From an uncultured Alphaproteobacteria bacterium (GTDB taxonomy: Bacteria; Pseudomonadota; Alphaproteobacteria; RF32; CAG-239), in the NCBI GenBank assembly GCA_944390895.1, contig CALXRQ010000004.1, positions 8,069 to 72,068 of the forward strand: a DNA stretch of 64,000 nucleotides. The letters are read 5' to 3'. The notes under the pieces are model-generated. The model did not search any database. It was given only the letters and a program-made list of their open reading frames with translations, and had not been told where the DNA came from. Positions 36,882 through 44,682 of this stretch are shown piece after piece. Within the stretch, counting starts at the first letter, position 1, and every line of letters begins with the position of its first letter. The position numbers and the translations under genes are program-made.

Positions 36882-37271
36882 CTACTGAACCTGAGCTTTT
36901 CCGACCCGGTCAAACTGCAGCGTTTTGCCGTCATAAGTATAAAGACTTAAAGACGACGGCGTGGTTCTGAATTTGTTGACCTTTCTCAAATCCGAAAAAT
37001 AGGTATTTTCAATCGCAACATAGTCCTGATGAGGCACAACATTGGTTTTAGAGTTAATGCTCAGCGTAATGCTGTCATTGTTCAGCTGGTAAACGCCCGT
37101 AACACCGTTAATGGCATTGCTGTAAAATCTGCCGTCATTGTTAAAGCCGATGACAATACGGAAAAGTTCGTTATCCTGTTTCAACTCATATTCGCTGCCG
37201 ACGATGTTATCGGACCCGAAGCATCCGCCCAACAGAAAAAACGAAAAAGCTACTGCTAAAAATTTCTTCAT
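36882..37271 (-). CDS. small lipoprotein (possibly META/HslJ-like)
   Basis: Lipobox FLLGGC; beta-rich 110-aa mature part. The META assignment is only a resemblance. Confidence 0.45.
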   Translation of the reverse strand: MKKFLAVAFSFFLLGGCFGSDNIVGSEYELKQDNELFRIVIGFNNDGRFYSNAINGVTGVYQLNNDSITLSINSKTNVVPHQDYVAIENTYFSDLRKVNKFRTTPSSLSLYTYDGKTLQFDRVGKAQVQ

Positions 37272-37329
37272 AAATAACCTCTCTTAAAACTATTATTCAG
37301 CGGGAAATCCCCTGGATTGCAATTTTACA

Positions 37330-38202
37330 TTAAATTGATATAAATGCAACCCCAAAGGTTATGACAAAAAGCATAACTACCGCCAAGACCAAATCACGGA
37401 ACAAAGGGCGGTAGGAAACTTTCCGTCCGCGGCCCGCATCTTCTTTAAGACGGAGCATTTCAACCCGCATGGCGCGGAAATATACATAGCTGATTAAAAT
37501 CCACCATAAAATGACGCTGACCGCGGCGGAAGTCCGGGTGACCTCCGTCAGTTGGATCAGTTTTTCCAGAGACCACCAGATAATGGCTATGACATAAGAA
37601 GTCCGATAACTGCGATAAACCAGATATAAAATCGGCACAATGAATCCTAAGCCGAACAAAATGTCCGAATCGCCGCTGAGCCAGGCAAACAACAACGTCA
37701 TCAGCATGACGAACAACGTCAGGTAAAACGCCAGACCGCGATAGGTGCGGCGAAACGGCAGGGTATTATATTCCGCCACCTGTTTTTTCAACTTTTCGTC
37801 CGCAGCCTGAGGCTCGATTTCAGGAGTAAAAAGCTGTTCACCCATATTGACTTCGGGATAAGGCGTGGTAAAAACCGGCGCCGGCGAAACCGGTTTTCCG
37901 GCTTTGATATTTTTCTTCAACGCCTTTACGGCAACTTTTTTGACAGCAATTGCCGCTTTTTTCGTTTTGCCGGCGGCAGACTTCTTAACAACGGGCTTCT
38001 TTGACGCCGGCTCGGACTTCGGAGCTGCCTTCTTTTCCGGCTTTGCCTCAGCAGATACATTTGCTTTATCCGTTAAATCTGAAATAACAGCAGATGAAAG
38101 TTCCTTCTTTTTTGCCGAAACCGGACGTTTAACACTTCTGTTTTTGACAGCCGTTTTCTTTCCTGCCGCTTTTGCCGAAGTTTTGAGTGATTTTTCAGAC
38201 AT
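37330..38202 (-). CDS. membrane protein with a Lys/Ala-rich (histone H1-like) N-terminal region
   Basis: The first ~110 aa are a KKxAxKK-type low-complexity region; the C-terminal half has about 5 TM helices. Confidence 0.5.
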   Translation of the reverse strand: MSEKSLKTSAKAAGKKTAVKNRSVKRPVSAKKKELSSAVISDLTDKANVSAEAKPEKKAAPKSEPASKKPVVKKSAAGKTKKAAIAVKKVAVKALKKNIKAGKPVSPAPVFTTPYPEVNMGEQLFTPEIEPQAADEKLKKQVAEYNTLPFRRTYRGLAFYLTLFVMLMTLLFAWLSGDSDILFGLGFIVPILYLVYRSYRTSYVIAIIWWSLEKLIQLTEVTRTSAAVSVILWWILISYVYFRAMRVEMLRLKEDAGRGRKVSYRPLFRDLVLAVVMLFVITFGVAFISI

Positions 38203-38304
38203 GAATACATCCCCTGATCAAATTGATTCTGGTTAATATAATATACATTATTCGTCAGGATAAAAGTTTTTTATATAAAAATTAACAAATATCAAAAAAT
38301 ATGC

Positions 38305-38333
38305 TTGATTTTTATTTTAAGAATATGTATGTT
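38305..38333 (+). promoter_or_regulatory. candidate sigma70 promoter of tRNA-Thr
   Basis: TTGATT-17 nt-TATGTT, ending about 15 nt upstream of the tRNA 5' end. Confidence 0.4.
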
Positions 38334-38347
38334 CACTTTCAGTTGTC

Positions 38348-38422
38348 GCCGCTGTAGCTCAGTGGTAGAGCACGTCATTGGTAATGACGGGGTCGCAAGT
38401 CCGATTCTTGCCAGCGGCACCA
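38348..38422 (+). tRNA. tRNA-Thr (anticodon GGU), CCA encoded
   Basis: Manual cloverleaf: acceptor GCCGCTG/CAGCGGC, D arm GCTC-AGTGGTA-GAGC, anticodon arm CGTCA-TTGGTAA-TGACG, T arm GCAAG-TCCGATT-CTTGC, then ACCA. Confidence 0.85.
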
Positions 38423-38432
38423 TTTTTGAGAT

Positions 38433-38456
38433 AGCACCTTTCAAGGTGCTTTTTTG
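38433..38456 (+). terminator. intrinsic terminator after the tRNA
   Basis: AGCACC/GGTGCT stem plus a T-run. Confidence 0.65.
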
Positions 38457-38480
38457 TTATGTAAACCAAGGCTTTCCGCC

Positions 38481-38532
38481 AGTCCGATTTTGGTGGTTTT
38501 GGAAAAAGCATTTTTAAATGAATTATCGGACT
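38481..38532. repeat. 52-bp inverted-repeat element, copy 1
   Basis: AGTCCGATTTT...TGAATTATCGGACT. The termini are reverse complements and the interior is AT-rich. Confidence 0.6.
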
Positions 38533-38729
38533 TTTTAAGCAAGCGCCAAGAAAATCAAGCATTTCATTAAATAAAATCCCAGTCCGATAAAATTGTTGAA
38601 AATTTAATTAAAAAATATATTGGGTGTAGATAGAATTTTTCAATAATTATTGCTCGGACAAAAATTTATTGTATTTTATGATTAATCTAAGTATGCTTTA
38701 TTTCAAATTACCATTGTAAGGAGGTTATT

Positions 38730-39122
38730 GTGAGAAAATATACATTACTATTAGTTGGCTTTTTGATGGGGTGCACAATGAGCGTCTTTGCAAATAGCTA
38801 TTTAAATACAGACGACAGAAATTTATCTGTAGCGCAAGCTTATATTGTATTAAAAGGGAATCATAATACAGTAGAAGAAGCAAATAAATTTGCCTCTTTA
38901 GTTAATTTTATGTCAGGGATGAGAACATTTGCTCAATATCATAATATCTTAAAAAACAAAGGAGATAAACAAGATAAGATTGAAGTTTGTTTAGCTGGAA
39001 GAAACTTGTTAACATATCAGAACATAATTTTTAGAGAGTACGAAGAAGGAAAGACAAAAGGAGATGAAACTTTTTCTATAGAATTCTTTAGAGAACTAGA
39101 AAAATGTTTAAATATGGATTAA
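38730..39122 (+). CDS. small secreted protein or lipoprotein, unknown function
   Basis: AAGGAGG 6 nt upstream of GTG 38730. Signal peptide MRKYTLLLVGFLMGCTMSVFA. Confidence 0.6.
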   Translation: MRKYTLLLVGFLMGCTMSVFANSYLNTDDRNLSVAQAYIVLKGNHNTVEEANKFASLVNFMSGMRTFAQYHNILKNKGDKQDKIEVCLAGRNLLTYQNIIFREYEEGKTKGDETFSIEFFRELEKCLNMD

Positions 39123-39176
39123 CCTAATGAACAATATTACGAACCACTTAGTGAACCTAAAAAAAGAAAATAAAAA

Positions 39177-39788
39177 ATGGCAATCAGTGATTTTTCAGAT
39201 ATAATTACAGCCTTTTCAACAATTGCTATGGCTTTAATTGCAGGTTTCGCTTTGCATACATGGCGCAAAGAATTTATCGGAAAGAGAAAAATAGAACTTG
39301 CCTGTCAAATAATGAAAAGCGTATATGATGTGCAAGATGCCATACTATATGCAAGAATTGGACGCATCAACGAACTTGATATTAAAGAGGTGGAACAGTG
39401 GGTACATTCGGAAAAGCAACGTGATCCTGAACACATGGGAATTTTTCCAGAAAGATATTTTGCATGGGTTCCTCATCGTAGATTGGCGGAAAGACAAGAT
39501 AAAATAGAAAAACTGCAAAATTTTATGAATGATGCATGCTTGTATTGGGGATTGGAGTTAATGCAATTAATATATGAATTAACTGGATATACGCTTAAAA
39601 TCAGGACTGCGGCAAAAGACCTGTATTATAGTGATACACATCAAAATCCCACAATATTACAAAATATACTATTTTCCAATAATGCTAATGATGACATTAA
39701 CAAAAGGGTAAATGAAATTGTTGAAGAAATTAAAATAAATTTAGAGCCAATTTATAAGGATCAACACTTTAAATGGAAAAAATTATAA
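39177..39788 (+). CDS. N-terminally membrane-anchored helical protein, unknown function
   Basis: 203 aa; one TM helix (IITAFSTIAMALIAGFAL); the remainder is predicted helical. No family recognised. Confidence 0.55.
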   Translation: MAISDFSDIITAFSTIAMALIAGFALHTWRKEFIGKRKIELACQIMKSVYDVQDAILYARIGRINELDIKEVEQWVHSEKQRDPEHMGIFPERYFAWVPHRRLAERQDKIEKLQNFMNDACLYWGLELMQLIYELTGYTLKIRTAAKDLYYSDTHQNPTILQNILFSNNANDDINKRVNEIVEEIKINLEPIYKDQHFKWKKL

Positions 39789-39885
39789 TAAAATATGCTC
39801 TATATCTTTTATATTTGCCCCATTATTGATTACTCTCAAGTAATTCAATTTTCCTACCTAAGTCGCTGAAATCTTGCGTAAAATT

Positions 39886-39915
39886 AGTCCGATAACTGCA
39901 CAGCAGGCTGCACCA
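39886..39915 (+). repeat. tRNA-3'-end-like 30-mer, copy B
   Basis: AGTCCGATAACTGCACAGCAGGCTGCACCA. Begins a ~145-bp imperfect direct repeat of 38398-38540. Confidence 0.65.
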
Positions 39916-39926
39916 TTTTTGATTAT

Positions 39927-39949
39927 GCACCGTTAAAGGTGCTTTTTTT
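39927..39949 (+). terminator. intrinsic terminator following repeat B
   Basis: GCACC/GGTGC stem plus T7. Confidence 0.6.
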
Positions 39950-39973
39950 GTATATATTCCAAGACTTTCATAA

Positions 39974-40025
39974 AGTCCGATTTTTTACATTTTAAAATTG
40001 GCAATTTTTGATGAATTATCGGACT
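39974..40025. repeat. 52-bp inverted-repeat element, copy 2
   Basis: Same length and same termini as 38481-38532, with a diverged interior. Confidence 0.6.
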
Positions 40026-40029
40026 TTTA

Positions 40030-40671
40030 CTATATCCTTAATATTCCATGCAACATGATATATATTGGCAACATTAGGAAGAAAGATATTGCATAACTCA
40101 AAATATTAGCTCGTAAAATTCCTTTAGATAAAACATCGTTACTATATGTGTTTCGCAAATACTTTTTTGTTATAAATCTCTCGATAAAATATGAGAAAAA
40201 ACAAAAAAAGATATTATAAAAAAGCATAATAAAAATAAAGCCTATCGTAACTACGACAGAGTTTCGAGGAAGATATGCCAATATTCCATATAATGGTCCA
40301 AGTGTTAAATATCCAATGTGATGAGAATCAGAAACGAACATTACAGTATAAAAAGCAAGACATAAAATTATTCCGCCTAAAACCGTTGAAACAAAGTTTG
40401 AAACTGAAACAATTTCAATTATTTTTGCAGTATTTGTTGTTTTAAAATACTTTTTTTTCAAAAATAAAGTTTCACATAATATAATGAATACTAAACAAAT
40501 GAATGTAATTATAGAACTAGATAGTGGATATCCTAACCCTATGATTCCTGAAGTTGCCGCAACAGATTGGATTGTATTTATCCATAGGGGCAATCCTCCA
40601 TTAGCAAATGCTAAAGATGGAAATAAAAAACATGATAGAAATAACAAGCTTATTTTAATGTTTTTTATCAT
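40030..40671 (-). CDS. polytopic membrane protein, unknown function
   Basis: 213 aa; signal-like N-terminus followed by about 6 TM helices; AT-rich codon usage. Confidence 0.5.
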   Translation of the reverse strand: MIKNIKISLLFLSCFLFPSLAFANGGLPLWINTIQSVAATSGIIGLGYPLSSSIITFICLVFIILCETLFLKKKYFKTTNTAKIIEIVSVSNFVSTVLGGIILCLAFYTVMFVSDSHHIGYLTLGPLYGILAYLPRNSVVVTIGFIFIMLFYNIFFCFFSYFIERFITKKYLRNTYSNDVLSKGILRANILSYAISFFLMLPIYIMLHGILRI

Positions 40672-40789
40672 AATATAATATCCTTATTTAAGTACTCGGT
40701 TACATATAGTATCCAGCCATAAAGGTAAAAATATATTAAATAAAACATCTTAGGTTCTGGTTTAATTTTATAAAATCATCATAAAAATT

Positions 40790-40819
40790 AGTCCGATAAT
40801 TGCACAATATCGCGCACCA
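40790..40819 (+). repeat. tRNA-3'-end-like 30-mer, copy C
   Basis: AGTCCGATAATTGCACAATATCGCGCACCA. Confidence 0.6.
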
Positions 40820-40826
40820 TAAAAAA

Positions 40827-40851
40827 AGCCTCCTTAAAGGAGGCTTTTTTT
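40827..40851. terminator. bidirectional intrinsic terminator following repeat C
   Basis: AGCCTCC/GGAGGCT stem with A7 and T7 flanks. Confidence 0.65.
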
Positions 40852-40973
40852 ATGGTTGTCGTTAAAAGAACGGAGTTGCGAAGCAAGTCTGACGGAGCCG
40901 TCTGAAAATTGTCAACCGGCAGAGGACGAGGAGCAAAGCGACGAGGTCTTGAGCGACAGCGATTGATGATAAT

Positions 40974-41246
40974 GTGACAGATGAAAATAAACATCAGTAT
41001 ATGAGTTGTCTGGCCGGAAAAGGCGGAAAGTTGGAGGCAACAATTGGTTGGAGTGCGGGACTGATTAAAGAAGCTAAAGACTTAGCCCAAAAGATTCCAA
41101 ACACTGAGACCAGAAATCGTTATGGCGGAGTTGGCAATATTTTCAAAGATAGCGCTAAGGACATAACCAATAATTGGAAAGGTTTACACTATGGCTTGGA
41201 AAATAAAGGTAAATGTGTCAATTTGCTTGAAAGAAAACTTCCTTAA
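40974..41246 (+). CDS. small soluble protein with a weak serum-amyloid-A-like pattern (possibly a gene remnant)
   Basis: 90-aa ORF with a GTG start and no clear RBS. WSAGLIKEAKD and KDSAKDITNNWKG resemble the SAA blocks WAAEAISDARE and EDSLADQAANEWG. Confidence 0.35.
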   Translation: MTDENKHQYMSCLAGKGGKLEATIGWSAGLIKEAKDLAQKIPNTETRNRYGGVGNIFKDSAKDITNNWKGLHYGLENKGKCVNLLERKLP

Positions 41247-41313
41247 TTGACGATTTTATAAATTTGTGAGAATATCTCTCTCTGTATACTTATAATGCTT
41301 GGGGTATTCTCAC

Positions 41314-41619
41314 ATGAAATCTAAAGTTAAATCTTTATTGTTTTGGGCGTTCTTCTTTTTTCTGTTAATTTGCTTAATGTTTTGGGGGGTATTTTTCTTT
41401 ATAAATACTGGAAATTTCTATTATTTTATGGGACGTCTTGTGGAAATTTCGGGCTACTTATTCATTGCCGCGTATGTTGTTTTTACAATTCTTATCTTTA
41501 CCCATAAATTTCCGGAAAGAATAAAACGATTTGAAAAGTTTAGATATCTGGGGGTAATGGTTTTGTTAATTTTTATTGAAATCTTCGTGATTGTTTCCGC
41601 TCTTCCTGATTTAGATTGA
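41314..41619 (+). CDS. small membrane protein (3-4 TM), unknown function
   Basis: ATG at 41314 (MKSKVKSLLFWAFFFF...); very hydrophobic. Confidence 0.45.
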   Translation: MKSKVKSLLFWAFFFFLLICLMFWGVFFFINTGNFYYFMGRLVEISGYLFIAAYVVFTILIFTHKFPERIKRFEKFRYLGVMVLLIFIEIFVIVSALPDLD

Positions 41620-41677
41620 AGTTTTCTGCACCCACCTCCATTTTTTTTGTTAATTGCTTAAATTCTTCATAGTTTTC

Positions 41678-41707
41678 AGTCCGATAATCGCACAGTAACG
41701 CGCACCA
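41678..41707 (+). repeat. tRNA-3'-end-like 30-mer, copy D
   Basis: AGTCCGATAATCGCACAGTAACGCGCACCA. Confidence 0.6.
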
Positions 41708-41715
41708 TAAAAAAA

Positions 41716-41744
41716 GCACCGCTTGAAACAAGGCGGTGCTTTTT
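41716..41744. terminator. bidirectional intrinsic terminator following repeat D
   Basis: GCACCGC...GCGGTGC stem with A- and T-runs. Also lies 3' of the minus-strand 166-aa gene. Confidence 0.65.
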
Positions 41745-41762
41745 CTACATTAGGGCTTTTCT

Positions 41763-42263
41763 TTAAGATGCCAGAAAGGATTCCACCTTACGCAGATCTT
41801 CCTCGGCTTTAGCCTTTTTTTCAGCTTGGCGAATGGCGTTCCGGCGTTCCCTTTCAGCCTTTTCGGCTTCATCGAGAACTTTCTTAATCGCAGCCTCCTC
41901 CTCGCTAATTTCAGCTATGGTTTTAGCGCCATAGGCCCGCAGCAGTTTTTCCACGGCTTTACTGTGACGGCCAATGTCCAGCAAAGTTCTGGTTTCATAA
42001 TGTGAAAGGTCACAATACTCAGGCGGACTGCTCCAACTTTCATTCACCCAAACCTGAACTCTCGTGTTCGGATCCATACCTTTTTCAAGCAGCATAATCA
42101 ACTTATCGATATCCGCCTTTTCACAAGCCTCTATCAATTCGTCGGTTTCTTTTTTCCGTTGTTCAATTTCTTTTTTGGCTCTGTACTTTTTCCAGAAGCA
42201 AAACAAATACACCAACAGACCACCGGCAAAAAAACTCACGGCAAAATAAATAATTGTTTTCAT
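41763..42263 (-). CDS. membrane-anchored protein with an ankyrin-like segment and a charged coiled-coil tail
   Basis: N-terminal TM helix; ACEKADIDKLIMLLEKGMDPN resembles an ankyrin repeat; the C-terminus is rich in E, K, A and R. Confidence 0.45.
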   Translation of the reverse strand: MKTIIYFAVSFFAGGLLVYLFCFWKKYRAKKEIEQRKKETDELIEACEKADIDKLIMLLEKGMDPNTRVQVWVNESWSSPPEYCDLSHYETRTLLDIGRHSKAVEKLLRAYGAKTIAEISEEEAAIKKVLDEAEKAERERRNAIRQAEKKAKAEEDLRKVESFLAS

Positions 42264-42528
42264 AACTTTATATTTTTAAGTTAATTTTTTTCAAAAATAA
42301 AAAGCATATTATGAAACAAGCCCCGATCAGCTTAATAGTCGAACATAATAATGCTTTTGATAAAAGGGAATATATCATATTTCCATCGCCGACTCAAGCA
42401 CAAAATTTGACAAAAAAAATATCATATTTTATGCTTCAGTTTAATATTAAACAGTTTGTCCGTCACCAGATATTGCATTTTTTCAATTATCCGGTAGATT
42501 ATCAAAATAAGAAGCGAGGGAGACATAA

Positions 42529-43041
42529 ATGTTAGTTATCAGAGCGGAGCAGCAAACCGATTATGAAAAAATCCGCCATGTTGTAACCGAAGCATTCAAA
42601 ACGGCCGAACACAGCGACGGAAACGAGCAAAATCTGGTTGAGGCTTTGAGAAAAAGCCAATCGTTTATCCCAGAACTTTCGCTCGTGGCGGTTAAAGACG
42701 ATGAGCTTGTCGGACATATCATGTTTACAAAAGCATTTGTAAACGAGACCGAGGTTCTGGCTCTGGCACCGTTATCCGTTTTGCCGGCTTATCAGAAGCA
42801 AGGCATCGGTCTGGCTTTGATTAAACGCGGACATGAAATCGCCAAAAGCTCGGGCTATAAATTTTCCGTTGTTTTGGGACATGCACAATATTATCCCAAG
42901 GCCGGTTATGTCCCTGCAAGCAGATACGGCATAAAAGCTCCTTTTAAGGCGGCGGACGAAAACTTTATGGCAATTTGTCTCAACGACACCGGCTGCCGAT
43001 TAAACGGCACAATCCGATATGACGCCGCGTTTGGCATTTGA
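42529..43041 (+). CDS. GNAT-family N-acetyltransferase (YhbS-like)
   Basis: Acetyl-CoA motif YQKQGIGLALIKRG; GAGGGAG RBS. Confidence 0.75.
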   Translation: MLVIRAEQQTDYEKIRHVVTEAFKTAEHSDGNEQNLVEALRKSQSFIPELSLVAVKDDELVGHIMFTKAFVNETEVLALAPLSVLPAYQKQGIGLALIKRGHEIAKSSGYKFSVVLGHAQYYPKAGYVPASRYGIKAPFKAADENFMAICLNDTGCRLNGTIRYDAAFGI

Positions 43042-43182
43042 CCGGCTTTCAGACGACGTTTTTCAAGAACAGGAAGAAAACTTTCCGAAAGATTATAAAT
43101 TTATTACTTAAAATCTTATATCTTTTTTAAGAATAGTCAGATATACTGTGTTTATTCCCCAATAACTGATTAGGGAGGAGAG

Positions 43183-43326
43183 ATGACCGAAAGCCCTAAG
43201 AAAATTCAAAAAAAACGTTCGGAACTGCGTTTTGAACGTGAAGCAAAAGCCCTGCAAAAAAATCTGGAAAAGCGTAAAAAACAGCAAAAGGCCAGAGAAG
43301 AACTGAAAAAGTCTGAAGGAAAATAG
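43183..43326 (+). CDS. small highly basic protein (47 aa; absent from the ORF track)
   Basis: GGGAGGAG lies 4 nt upstream of the ATG. Translation: MTESPKKIQKKRSELRFEREAKALQKNLEKRKKQQKAREELKKSEGK. Confidence 0.5.
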   Translation: MTESPKKIQKKRSELRFEREAKALQKNLEKRKKQQKAREELKKSEGK

Positions 43327-43374
43327 CCCTCAGGCTTTTATTGTTTAGCAAGCAACCGCACAAGGAGAAAATTT

Positions 43375-44682
43375 ATGGATAAGATTAAAATCAAAGGCGG
43401 TCGACGCCTGGAAGGAAAAATCTATATCAGCGGCGCAAAAAATGCCGCTCTGCCCCTGATTTGCGCCAGCCTTTTAACCAAAGACACGGTTACGCTGACC
43501 AATATGCCGATGCTGTCCGACATTGCGTCGATGAACGCGCTGCTTCGGCAACTCGGGACTCAGATTGACGAATTTAACGACTTTGTCGACGGGCATCCGT
43601 CCAAGACCTATTCTTATCGGACGGCAGAGGCTTCTTCTCTGACCGCTCCTTATGACTATGTGCGAAAAATGCGCGCTTCATATTATGTTTTGGGTCCGCT
43701 GCTGGCGCGCTACGGCCATGTGGAGGTCTCGCTGCCCGGCGGATGTGCTATCGGTGCGCGGCCAATGGACATTCACCTTTCGGCTTTGGAACAGATGGGC
43801 GCCAAAATAGAGATTAAAAACGGCTATATCATCGCTGACGCTCCCGACAAACTTCAAGGCGCGCATATCGCCTTTCATACGGCTTCGGTCGGCGCCACCT
43901 GCAATATTATGATGGCCGCGGCTCTAGCCTGCGGAACCACGATTATCGAGAACGCCGCCAAAGAACCCGAGATTGCCGATTTGGCCGAGCTGCTGAACGC
44001 CATGGGCGCGCAAATTTCCGGACAGGGAACCTCAACCATCACCATTGAGGGCGTCAGCGCTTTGTCCGGCGCCAGACATAAGGTTATTCCCGACCGGATA
44101 GAGGCCGGTTCCTATGCCGTGGCGGCTGCGATCACGCGCGGAAAAATAGAGCTGATCAACGCGCAAATGCAAACGTTGCAAAACCCGATGCAAATTCTGC
44201 GGGACGCCGGGGTAAAAGTGAGCGAAACGCCAAACGGCATTTTGGTTGATGCCATTAACGCAAAACTCAGCGGACAGGATATTATGACTGATTATTATCC
44301 GGGATTTCCGACTGACCTGCAGGCTCAGTTTCTGGCTCTGATGCTGACGGCCGAAGGCGCGTCGATGGTCACCGAGACCATTTGGGAAAACCGTTTCATG
44401 CATGTTCCGGAACTGATGCGGATGGGTGCGAACATCAACGTCCACGGCCATGCTTCGGCCATTGTCCGCGGCGTGAAAAAACTTTCGGGCGCCCAAGTGA
44501 TGGCCACCGACCTCAGGGCTTCGTTCGCACTGGTTCTGGCGGGACTGGCCGCCGAAGGAGAAACCATCGTCAACCGCGTGTACCATCTTGACCGCGGCTA
44601 CGAAAAACTGGAAGAAAAGCTCAAAGGGGTCGGCGCCGACATTGAACGCATTAAAGAAGCGGACGAACTGGCTGCGGAATAA
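43375..44682 (+). CDS. murA: UDP-N-acetylglucosamine 1-carboxyvinyltransferase
   Basis: 435 aa; KISGAKNAALP and the active-site loop LPGGCAIGARPMD. Confidence 0.95.
   Translation: MDKIKIKGGRRLEGKIYISGAKNAALPLICASLLTKDTVTLTNMPMLSDIASMNALLRQLGTQIDEFNDFVDGHPSKTYSYRTAEASSLTAPYDYVRKMRASYYVLGPLLARYGHVEVSLPGGCAIGARPMDIHLSALEQMGAKIEIKNGYIIADAPDKLQGAHIAFHTASVGATCNIMMAAALACGTTIIENAAKEPEIADLAELLNAMGAQISGQGTSTITIEGVSALSGARHKVIPDRIEAGSYAVAAAITRGKIELINAQMQTLQNPMQILRDAGVKVSETPNGILVDAINAKLSGQDIMTDYYPGFPTDLQAQFLALMLTAEGASMVTETIWENRFMHVPELMRMGANINVHGHASAIVRGVKKLSGAQVMATDLRASFALVLAGLAAEGETIVNRVYHLDRGYEKLEEKLKGVGADIERIKEADELAAE

Follow-up and report, generated by a model that had tools for sequence, protein, structure and literature searches.

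The 52-bp unit with inverted ends that occurs twice behind the tRNA-Thr(GGT) gene of an uncultured Alphaproteobacteria bacterium most likely belongs to an attachment (att) architecture of large serine recombinases (LSRs) that combines a tRNA target with an extra attP-shaped site. We analyzed a stretch of 64,000 nt from contig CALXRQ010000004.1, which we call the window, and compared it with samples of genomes from the same family (sets of 36 and 121 were used). The unit itself is probably a cis-acting accessory site, bound by the LSR, in the att region of small elements that are stacked behind tRNA-Thr(GGT). In the mechanism that we propose, an LSR would insert small integrative elements successively at the 3' end of the tRNA gene, with strand exchange in a shared core, GCACCATT, and the geometry of the sites predicts the dinucleotide CA at tRNA positions 72-73 as the point of crossover. 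The unit lies about 60 bp inside each element and carries, twice and in inverted orientation, the octamer that the LSR would read in the T-loop of the tRNA; an LSR dimer is predicted to bind there. As the accessory part of a composite att site the unit may be needed in cis for movement in trans, and this could be why cassettes without a recombinase gene have retained it.

The tRNA-Thr(GGT) gene is the only tRNA gene of the window, and an island of low GC content (26-35% versus about 50%) extends from directly after it to about position 41760. Here, cassette 1 is bracketed by two modules of about 140 bp (38398-38535 and 39886-40028), each with the unit at its end. The original prediction had described an imperfect direct repeat of about 145 bp, and pairwise alignment bears this out with exact coordinates. 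An ungapped comparison of 38414-38535 with 39907-40028 gives 75% identity over 122 nt; counted from GCACCA, 90 of 119 positions agree, and a single 5-nt gap carries the alignment back to the T-loop octamer AGTCCGAT of the tRNA. Both units are 52 bp long, as had been noted, and agree at 39 of 52 positions, with a diverged interior (23 of 36 equal). Of the inverted termini that had been proposed, the outer 8 nt are indeed reverse-complementary (AGTCCGAT and ATCGGACT), whereas the longer strings quoted at the time lack this symmetry: the left one has ...GATTTT, the right one, when reversed, ...GATAAT. The octamer AGTCCGAT occurs 11 times in the window versus 1.2 times expected, and nine of the 11 lie within 38398-41685. 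As for the part of the repeat that had been called tRNA-end-like, its right copy is an attP-type half-site in a coding relic and not a tRNA fragment.

In the 1.68-Mb genome the unit exists in two copies, both in this array. Among the relatives the module is present in 30 of the 36 sampled genomes, often several times in tandem behind tRNA-Thr(GGT), while in a few genomes it is found behind tRNA-Leu(TAA) or tRNA-Thr(CGT) instead. The earlier reading had been staked on what further copies in related genomes would look like, and length and termini are kept in them: a pattern search allowing spacers of 22 to 52 nt found AGTCCGAT...ATCGGACT in 83 of the 121 family genomes, nearly all units among the matches listed measure 52 bp, with a few of 53, 51 or 48, and the reversed pattern, used as a control, gave one match. 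Thirty-one modules were also gathered by profile, independently of the 8-mer pattern, and 24 of them carry a unit of exactly 52 bp. The mean majority-base fraction over these 31 modules is 0.97 in the core, 0.97 and 0.96 in the two 8-mers and 0.71 in the unit interior. Their aligned order is GCACCA, a T-run with terminator, TATGTA..CCAAGGCTTTC, AGTCCGATTTT, about 30 variable AT-rich bases and finally TTATCGGACTTTT.

The insertion boundaries are defined by two relatives. In G010 the site is empty and reads tRNA...GCACCATT/AAAACAC (the slash marks the boundary). In G001 it is filled by a 9.4-kb element, which begins on the left with GCACCATT/TATCAG and ends on the right with ...TTAGTCCGATAATTGCATAGTATCTCGCACCATT/AAAACAC (also written ...AGTCCGATAATTGCATAGTATCTCGCACCATT/AAAACAC). 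The open reading frame (ORF) of this element that adjoins the tRNA codes for an LSR; a Pfam scan, of that ORF only, shows Resolvase, Recombinase and zinc-ribbon domains in it. All 15 fetched loci that contain a tRNA together with an LSR homologue of at least 67% identity have the LSR gene abutting tRNA-Thr(GGT); one more locus, L124, has no tRNA within the fetched stretch and hence stands outside the 15. The LSR gene converges on the tRNA, and its ORF traverses the unit and the core and runs into the antisense strand of the tRNA. In autonomous elements the unit is located within the 3' coding end of the LSR gene. The original prediction had overlooked this recombinase family and the fact that crossover is at GCACCATT rather than in the unit. 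In the window, identity to a cassette 1 copy from another genus begins at the core of junction 0 (38417).

A cognate LSR gene lies nearby in relatives, but not in the genome studied here, which encodes no serine recombinase (no match to PF00239 or PF07508). The att sites of the window are therefore orphans, sites that were kept while the enzyme was lost. Graded C-terminal remnants of the LSR are found in other genomes (residues 383-526, 415-526, 453-514 and 463-526). The only tyrosine recombinases of the present genome are two proteins of 305 and 354 aa, which we read as Xer-like, judged by size alone. In another relative, G007, a different 7-kb island occupies the same tRNA-Thr (L039 3600-10950); it encodes a tyrosine integrase (DUF6538 and Phage_integrase), a small resolvase, an Mrr-type nuclease and a KAP NTPase, and it is bounded by a plain 19-nt tRNA-fragment repeat, CTTCTTGCCAGCGGCACCA. 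Since this island has a tyrosine integrase and a plain repeat, the tRNA-Thr locus serves elements of two kinds, and our modules are those of the LSR-type elements; a tyrosine-integrase or Xer origin was rejected because the genome has only the two tyrosine recombinases and because the repeat of the G007 island differs.

Element side and tRNA side differ in the spacing between octamer and GCACCA: on the element side, 23 of 23 distinct junctions have 16 nt, whereas 25 of 26 tRNA-Thr genes have 11 nt. This difference is the 5-nt gap of the module alignment. The sole odd spacing, 26 nt in L037 (8496-8600), goes with a 15-nt duplication in the tRNA-Thr 3' end, in which GATTCTTGCCAGCG is present twice. 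For serine integrases it has been described that the motif of the zinc-ribbon domain lies 5 bp nearer to the centre in attB than in attP (PMC3783163). The spacings of 16 versus 11 nt match this 5-bp rule, which identifies the right-hand repeat copy as a half-site of attP type and the tRNA as one of attB type. We rejected the reading of the right copy as the tRNA-fragment direct repeat of a tyrosine-integrase island, because of its 5 extra nt, its separate consensus and the lack of an integrase in the island.

Minus-strand translation that starts in frame at the core yields a conserved peptide at 22 of 25 junctions, WC[AES][IL]LC.YRT..Y[DE][DE]FK.L.RKIE.... Public LSR proteins are found with this element-side tail (545-565 aa), and others with a tail read from the tRNA antisense strand (526-546 aa). 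It follows that attP lies within the LSR gene and that the enzyme's C-terminus is exchanged upon integration. Examples of the two tails (G001 L101:9636-11216; P0060, P0067, P0081, P0094) read ...KWCRWQESDLRPRHYQ from the tRNA antisense strand and ...KWCAILC.YRT... through the junction. Phage Mx8 offers a parallel with its intP/intX genes, for which, according to the citation in PMC4383910, the integrase ORF crosses attP and integration alters the C-terminus. The LSR ORF likewise crosses the att core, with both tails found in public proteins; however, Mx8 Int is a tyrosine recombinase, and here the element-side tail is kept also in cassettes that have no recombinase.

The unit has the geometry 8+17+2+17+8. 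Its 36-nt spacer thus equals 2x17+2, that is two attP-type half-sites, an equality that assumes CA of GCACCA as the crossover dinucleotide. The size and the inverted outer motifs of an attP-type site are found in the unit (8+36+8 = 52 bp), and the 5-bp offset is found in the element half-site. We nevertheless rejected the unit as the actual attP: attL has no ATCGGACT 17 nt past the core, no split LSR gene is seen, all integrated elements have an intact unit, and the boundaries lie at GCACCATT. Within the LSR gene the unit encodes the peptide SPIISEKRDILKLILSD, which is taken to be part of a conserved C-terminal segment of the LSR. Variants of the LSR-gene unit, in our own translation, differ by conservative and synonymous changes, among them a TCT/AGC serine switch, with unvaried 8-mers, an invariance that is partly built in since the variants were picked by exact 8-mer match. 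LSR homologues found by protein similarity retain the 8-mers down to 67% identity, and a similar C-terminal segment seems to be encoded by more distant LSRs that are not located at tRNAs, but there the inverted 8-mers are absent. The octamer stands in different reading frames at its three places, so that its conservation is at the DNA level.

The cassette units are homologous to the LSR-gene unit and lie in the same orientation, with about 34 of 52 positions equal by a count made by eye; they are most plausibly left over from the 3' ends of LSR genes. What is kept in such non-coding remnants is the ends of the unit and their spacing; the interior drifts. One might go further and see in the cassette unit a functionless, decaying remnant of a deleted LSR gene 3' end, whose ends look conserved through repeated recent derivation. 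Besides the homology and common orientation, the graded series of C-terminal remnants and the absence of the unit at some junctions would agree with this. However, the interior has strongly diverged while 8-mers and 36-nt spacing are kept across many genera in a non-coding context, and even within LSR genes the 8-mers are conserved as DNA sequence, in different frames at different sites. We consider the functionless remnant unlikely.

Judged from the sequences, co-variation with the T-loop is the strongest evidence that the unit is a protein site. The ends of the Thr-type unit match the unusual T-loop GTCCGAT of tRNA-Thr(GGT). An LSR of 41% identity at tRNA-Pro(CGG) (L128) has the 52-bp unit AGTTCGAA-N36-TTCGAACT, LSRs at tRNA-Glu(CTC) (L152, L153) have the 52-bp unit AGTTCGAAAG...CTTTCGAACT (also written AGTTCGAA-N36-TTCGAACT), and arrays at tRNA-Gln (L148, L149, L150) have a 51-bp unit, GGTTCGAAGATG...CATCTTCGAAC; the ends of the Pro-, Glu- and Gln-type units each match the T-loop of their own target tRNA. 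At the secondary sites tRNA-Leu and tRNA-Thr(CGT), cassettes retain AGTCCGAT, and the unit ends therefore track the recombinase lineage and not the neighbouring tRNA. Since such parallel cassette arrays and LSR elements at tRNA-Gln, -Glu and -Pro have T-loop-matching units of their own, the phenomenon is general in this bacterial family. The protein-recognised recombination or binding site that had originally been suggested is thus supported on three counts: many genera preserve ends and spacing while the interior drifts, there is co-variation between the ends and the T-loop that the associated LSR targets, and the spacing is that of two attP-type half-sites.

The structured RNA that had been named as the alternative found no support, as folding of both strands and of the alignment gained nothing past the terminal 8-bp stem. 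Nevertheless, a nucleic-acid hairpin can be conceived in two ways, as an RNA stem-loop that stabilises or processes transcripts or as a single-stranded DNA site like the attC of integrons. Shuffled sequences fold less well than the terminal 8-bp stem (z = -2.5 to -4.6), and two stem pairs are changed on both sides in the Pro- and Glu-type units, but a palindromic protein site predicts the same double changes. The stem encloses a 36-nt loop, and when 18 diverse units were folded as an alignment no conserved interior pairs appeared; both strands, folded as single-stranded DNA, formed the terminal stem only, and an Rfam scan of 37000-44000 returned the tRNA alone above threshold and thus no match for the unit. 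A hairpin would also leave the T-loop match and the 5-bp offset rule unexplained, and the genome has just its two tyrosine recombinases, Xer-like by size. We regard a hairpin function as very improbable. Several more specific candidates were discarded: a known RNA family (no Rfam match to the unit, terminal stem only predicted), an integron attC (unpaired interior, fixed length, only the two recombinases that are Xer-like by size), a dispersed repeat such as a repetitive extragenic palindrome, a miniature inverted-repeat transposable element or an uptake sequence (two copies in 1.68 Mb, both in the array), and a Neisseria-type uptake sequence (GCCGTCTGAA once only).

A promoter or operator of the cassette genes, bound by some other dimeric regulator, is a very improbable reading. 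The unit does lie upstream of the plus-strand genes of cassette 1 and is AT-rich with phased T tracts. However, neither unit has a plus-strand sigma-70-like match, promoter-like matches in the region number 22 versus a shuffle expectation of 17.2, unit B lies at the 3' end of a minus-strand gene, and in autonomous elements the unit is inside the LSR coding region. The sequence of the modules is mosaic, copies with the same cargo differing in terminators and unit interiors, and a search for a fixed recombination breakpoint in the modules gave this mosaic with no single breakpoint. Just as improbable as a promoter is a second crossover site, at which cargo would be exchanged by recombination near the centre of the unit: left and right halves of the unit re-assort among cassettes, the window and L063 have both flanks in common and differ at 9 of 29 interior positions, and some module pairs share only the unit or half of it, but LSRs do not normally recombine attP with attP, the breakpoints are scattered over the whole module instead of being fixed at the centre, and the LSR gene is never split at the unit. 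None of these rivals accounts for both the T-loop match and the spacing rule.

Several observations weigh against an accessory LSR-binding site. The unit is intact in every integrated element and is hence not the crossover site, and to our knowledge characterised LSRs have no accessory sites. In the half-sites right of the core the octamer is missing from the position where it would be expected, an uncommon feature among LSR sites. Neither junctions 2 and 3 of the window nor many junctions in relatives have a unit, so that it is dispensable at some junctions, and the distance from core to unit varies from about 58 to 115 bp. Moreover, the conserved ends could result in part from repeated fresh derivation of cassettes out of LSR genes. 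Beyond the observed anatomy, family spread, link to the LSR gene, insertion boundaries, 5-bp offset and T-loop co-variation, we infer that the zinc-ribbon domain binds the unit, and that the unit may have a role in synapsis, direction control or regulation.

It is conceivable, although rather doubtful, that the unit and the split LSR gene together form a direction switch that dispenses with a separate excision factor, in an integron-like system driven by a serine recombinase. The LSR would then carry the tail WCAILC.YRT... in the circle and the tRNA-antisense tail when integrated. The unit would bind a second LSR dimer, which would lock or unlock the neighbouring site through coiled-coil contacts. 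Cassettes without a recombinase would keep both the unit and the tail block, as any of them may have to supply both in a circle of several cassettes.

Features of the array behind tRNA-Thr(GGT), in window coordinates
Feature	Position	Strand	Basis or remark
tRNA-Thr(GGT), integration target	38348..38422	+	ARAGORN; Rfam tRNA, 70.9 bits
T-loop octamer AGTCCGAT of tRNA-Thr(GGT), B-type half-site	38398-38405		11 nt ahead of GCACCA
Crossover core GCACCATT, junction 0, attL-like (tRNA half and element right half)	38417..38424	+	empty versus filled site, G010/G001
Intrinsic terminator, supplied by the element and serving the tRNA transcript	38433..38450	+	terminator scan; kept in module alignment
52-bp unit copy A, AGTCCGAT-N36-ATCGGACT, putative LSR-dimer site with attP geometry	38481..38532	+	
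Continued relic of LSR 3' coding end, closing in an extra AGTCCGATAA (38581-38588)	38533..38588	+	identity as LSR relic from by-eye minus-strand comparison
Cassette 1 cargo, two ORFs of 130 aa and 203 aa	38730..39788	+	no Pfam match
Element-side (P) block, minus-strand reading WCSLLCSYRTNFTQDFSDLGRKIELLESNQ then stop, relic of the alternative LSR C-terminal tail	39826..39909	-	
P half-site octamer within the P block	39886-39893		16 nt ahead of GCACCA
Crossover core GCACCATT, junction 1	39910..39917	+	
Terminator of the second module	39927..39942	+	terminator scan
52-bp unit copy B	39974..40025	+	abuts stop codon of minus-strand ORF 40030-40671
Junction 2: P half-site octamer 40790-40797, core GCACCA 40814-40819	40790..40853	+	different terminator, no unit
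Junction 3: P half-site octamer 41678-41685, core GCACCA 41702-41707	41678..41759	+	terminator, no unit

Junction 3 is the distal end of the low-GC island. The segment that follows unit A (38533-38588) is common to copies of cassette X. The extra AGTCCGATAA in which it closes, 49 nt past unit A (38581-38591), is the exact end of an 11.4-kb similarity to the relative G003, and the alignment with locus L034 stops at 38591; by its sequence it looks like a leftover element-side half-site. Cassette 3 (40974-41619, ORFs of 90 aa and 106 aa) is homologous to a pair of 95 aa and 101 aa in an abundant gut species (L061 4774-5430), its first ORF in the window apparently being 5'-truncated by in-frame stops. 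A GC-rich, non-coding filler of 130-200 nt is found between some junctions (window 40860-40960; L031 12100-12290; L032 10620-10820; L043 8075-8275). It holds a tail-to-tail T-arm-like repeat, ATCGGACTTGC..GCAAGTCTGAC, and terminates in CTTCTTGCCAGCGGCACCA; the window copy is degenerate and houses the window's sole GCCGTCTGAA. In L043 (8360-8455), about 95 nt of GC-rich sequence are inserted within the unit directly past AGTCCGA and resemble a miniature insertion element.

Cassette 1 moves horizontally, as indicated by its sequence relationships. The window segment 38417-39902 is 97.8% identical to a cassette of another genus, where it stands second in an array behind a different tRNA, tRNA-Leu, and the cassette 1 proteins are found letter-exact on about 950 contigs compared with 11 for the neighbouring MurA. 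This cassette is also found in an abundant species of the human gut, where it is placed between tRNA-Thr and murA and is in some cases preceded by an extra HNH cassette. Several cassettes in relatives appear to be defence-related (L031/L033 7460-11900; L037 8919-10695; L038 11987-15224; L034 11450-14758). The L038 cassette encodes a C5 cytosine methyltransferase by Pfam, which also identified the Mrr and KAP NTPase of the G007 island, and ORFs of 653 aa, 330 aa and 1102 aa resemble a methyltransferase partner set and a helicase by sequence appearance alone. No Pfam match was obtained for the cargo of the window.

Parts of this architecture have counterparts in known systems. The attP and attB sites of the A118/LI, Bxb1 and phiC31 type are likewise about 50 bp long with outer inverted motifs, show the same 5-bp offset between attB and attP, and lie next to or within the integrase gene. 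However, no strands are exchanged in the unit, and at the true crossover site only the left half bears the motif; moreover, the target is a tRNA gene and the motif its T-loop, whereas the 2014 Islander paper states that no targeting of tRNA genes by serine integrases was known (PMC4383910). Tycheposons and Islander-class islands also consist of elements stacked behind a tRNA, where repeats look like the 3' end of the tRNA and earlier insertions have left remnants. In contrast to the present case, their repeats are true tRNA fragments and almost always made by tyrosine integrases, while the apparent fragment described here has 5 extra nt and a consensus of its own and codes for a recombinase tail.

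Integron arrays (attI/attC, IntI) share with these elements the small cassettes, mostly without promoter or recombinase, that are added at one fixed head site, and the separating recombination sites with conserved inverted ends and variable interiors. Unlike in integrons, there is no evident IntI here, the unit has a fixed length, its interior is not self-complementary, and the logic would be that of a serine recombinase acting on double-stranded DNA. In SCCmec and the Enterococcus cassette chromosome, Ccr LSRs act at the 3' end of rlmH, and elements accumulate in tandem, including recombinase-less ones that are moved in trans. Insertion by an LSR at the 3' end of a conserved gene and tandem elements are features in common; however, LSR clade and target are different, and neither a T-loop mimic nor a 52-bp palindromic unit has been described there. 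Our literature searches found no description of the 52-bp unit.

LSRs are prized for genome engineering because their sites are short and no accessory DNA is needed. A clade of LSRs that targets tRNA genes via the T-loop and has an extra attP-shaped site in its own gene would be a new site architecture. The natural pairs of recombinase and T-loop motif (Thr, Pro, Glu, Gln) are usable for studying how zinc-ribbon domains read DNA. For the family itself, this architecture explains the "tRNA-like" repeats in genomes that have no integrase, and it explains the strain-variable arrays behind tRNA genes in small-genome gut Alphaproteobacteria; in relatives, the cassettes carry restriction-modification and other defence-like genes.

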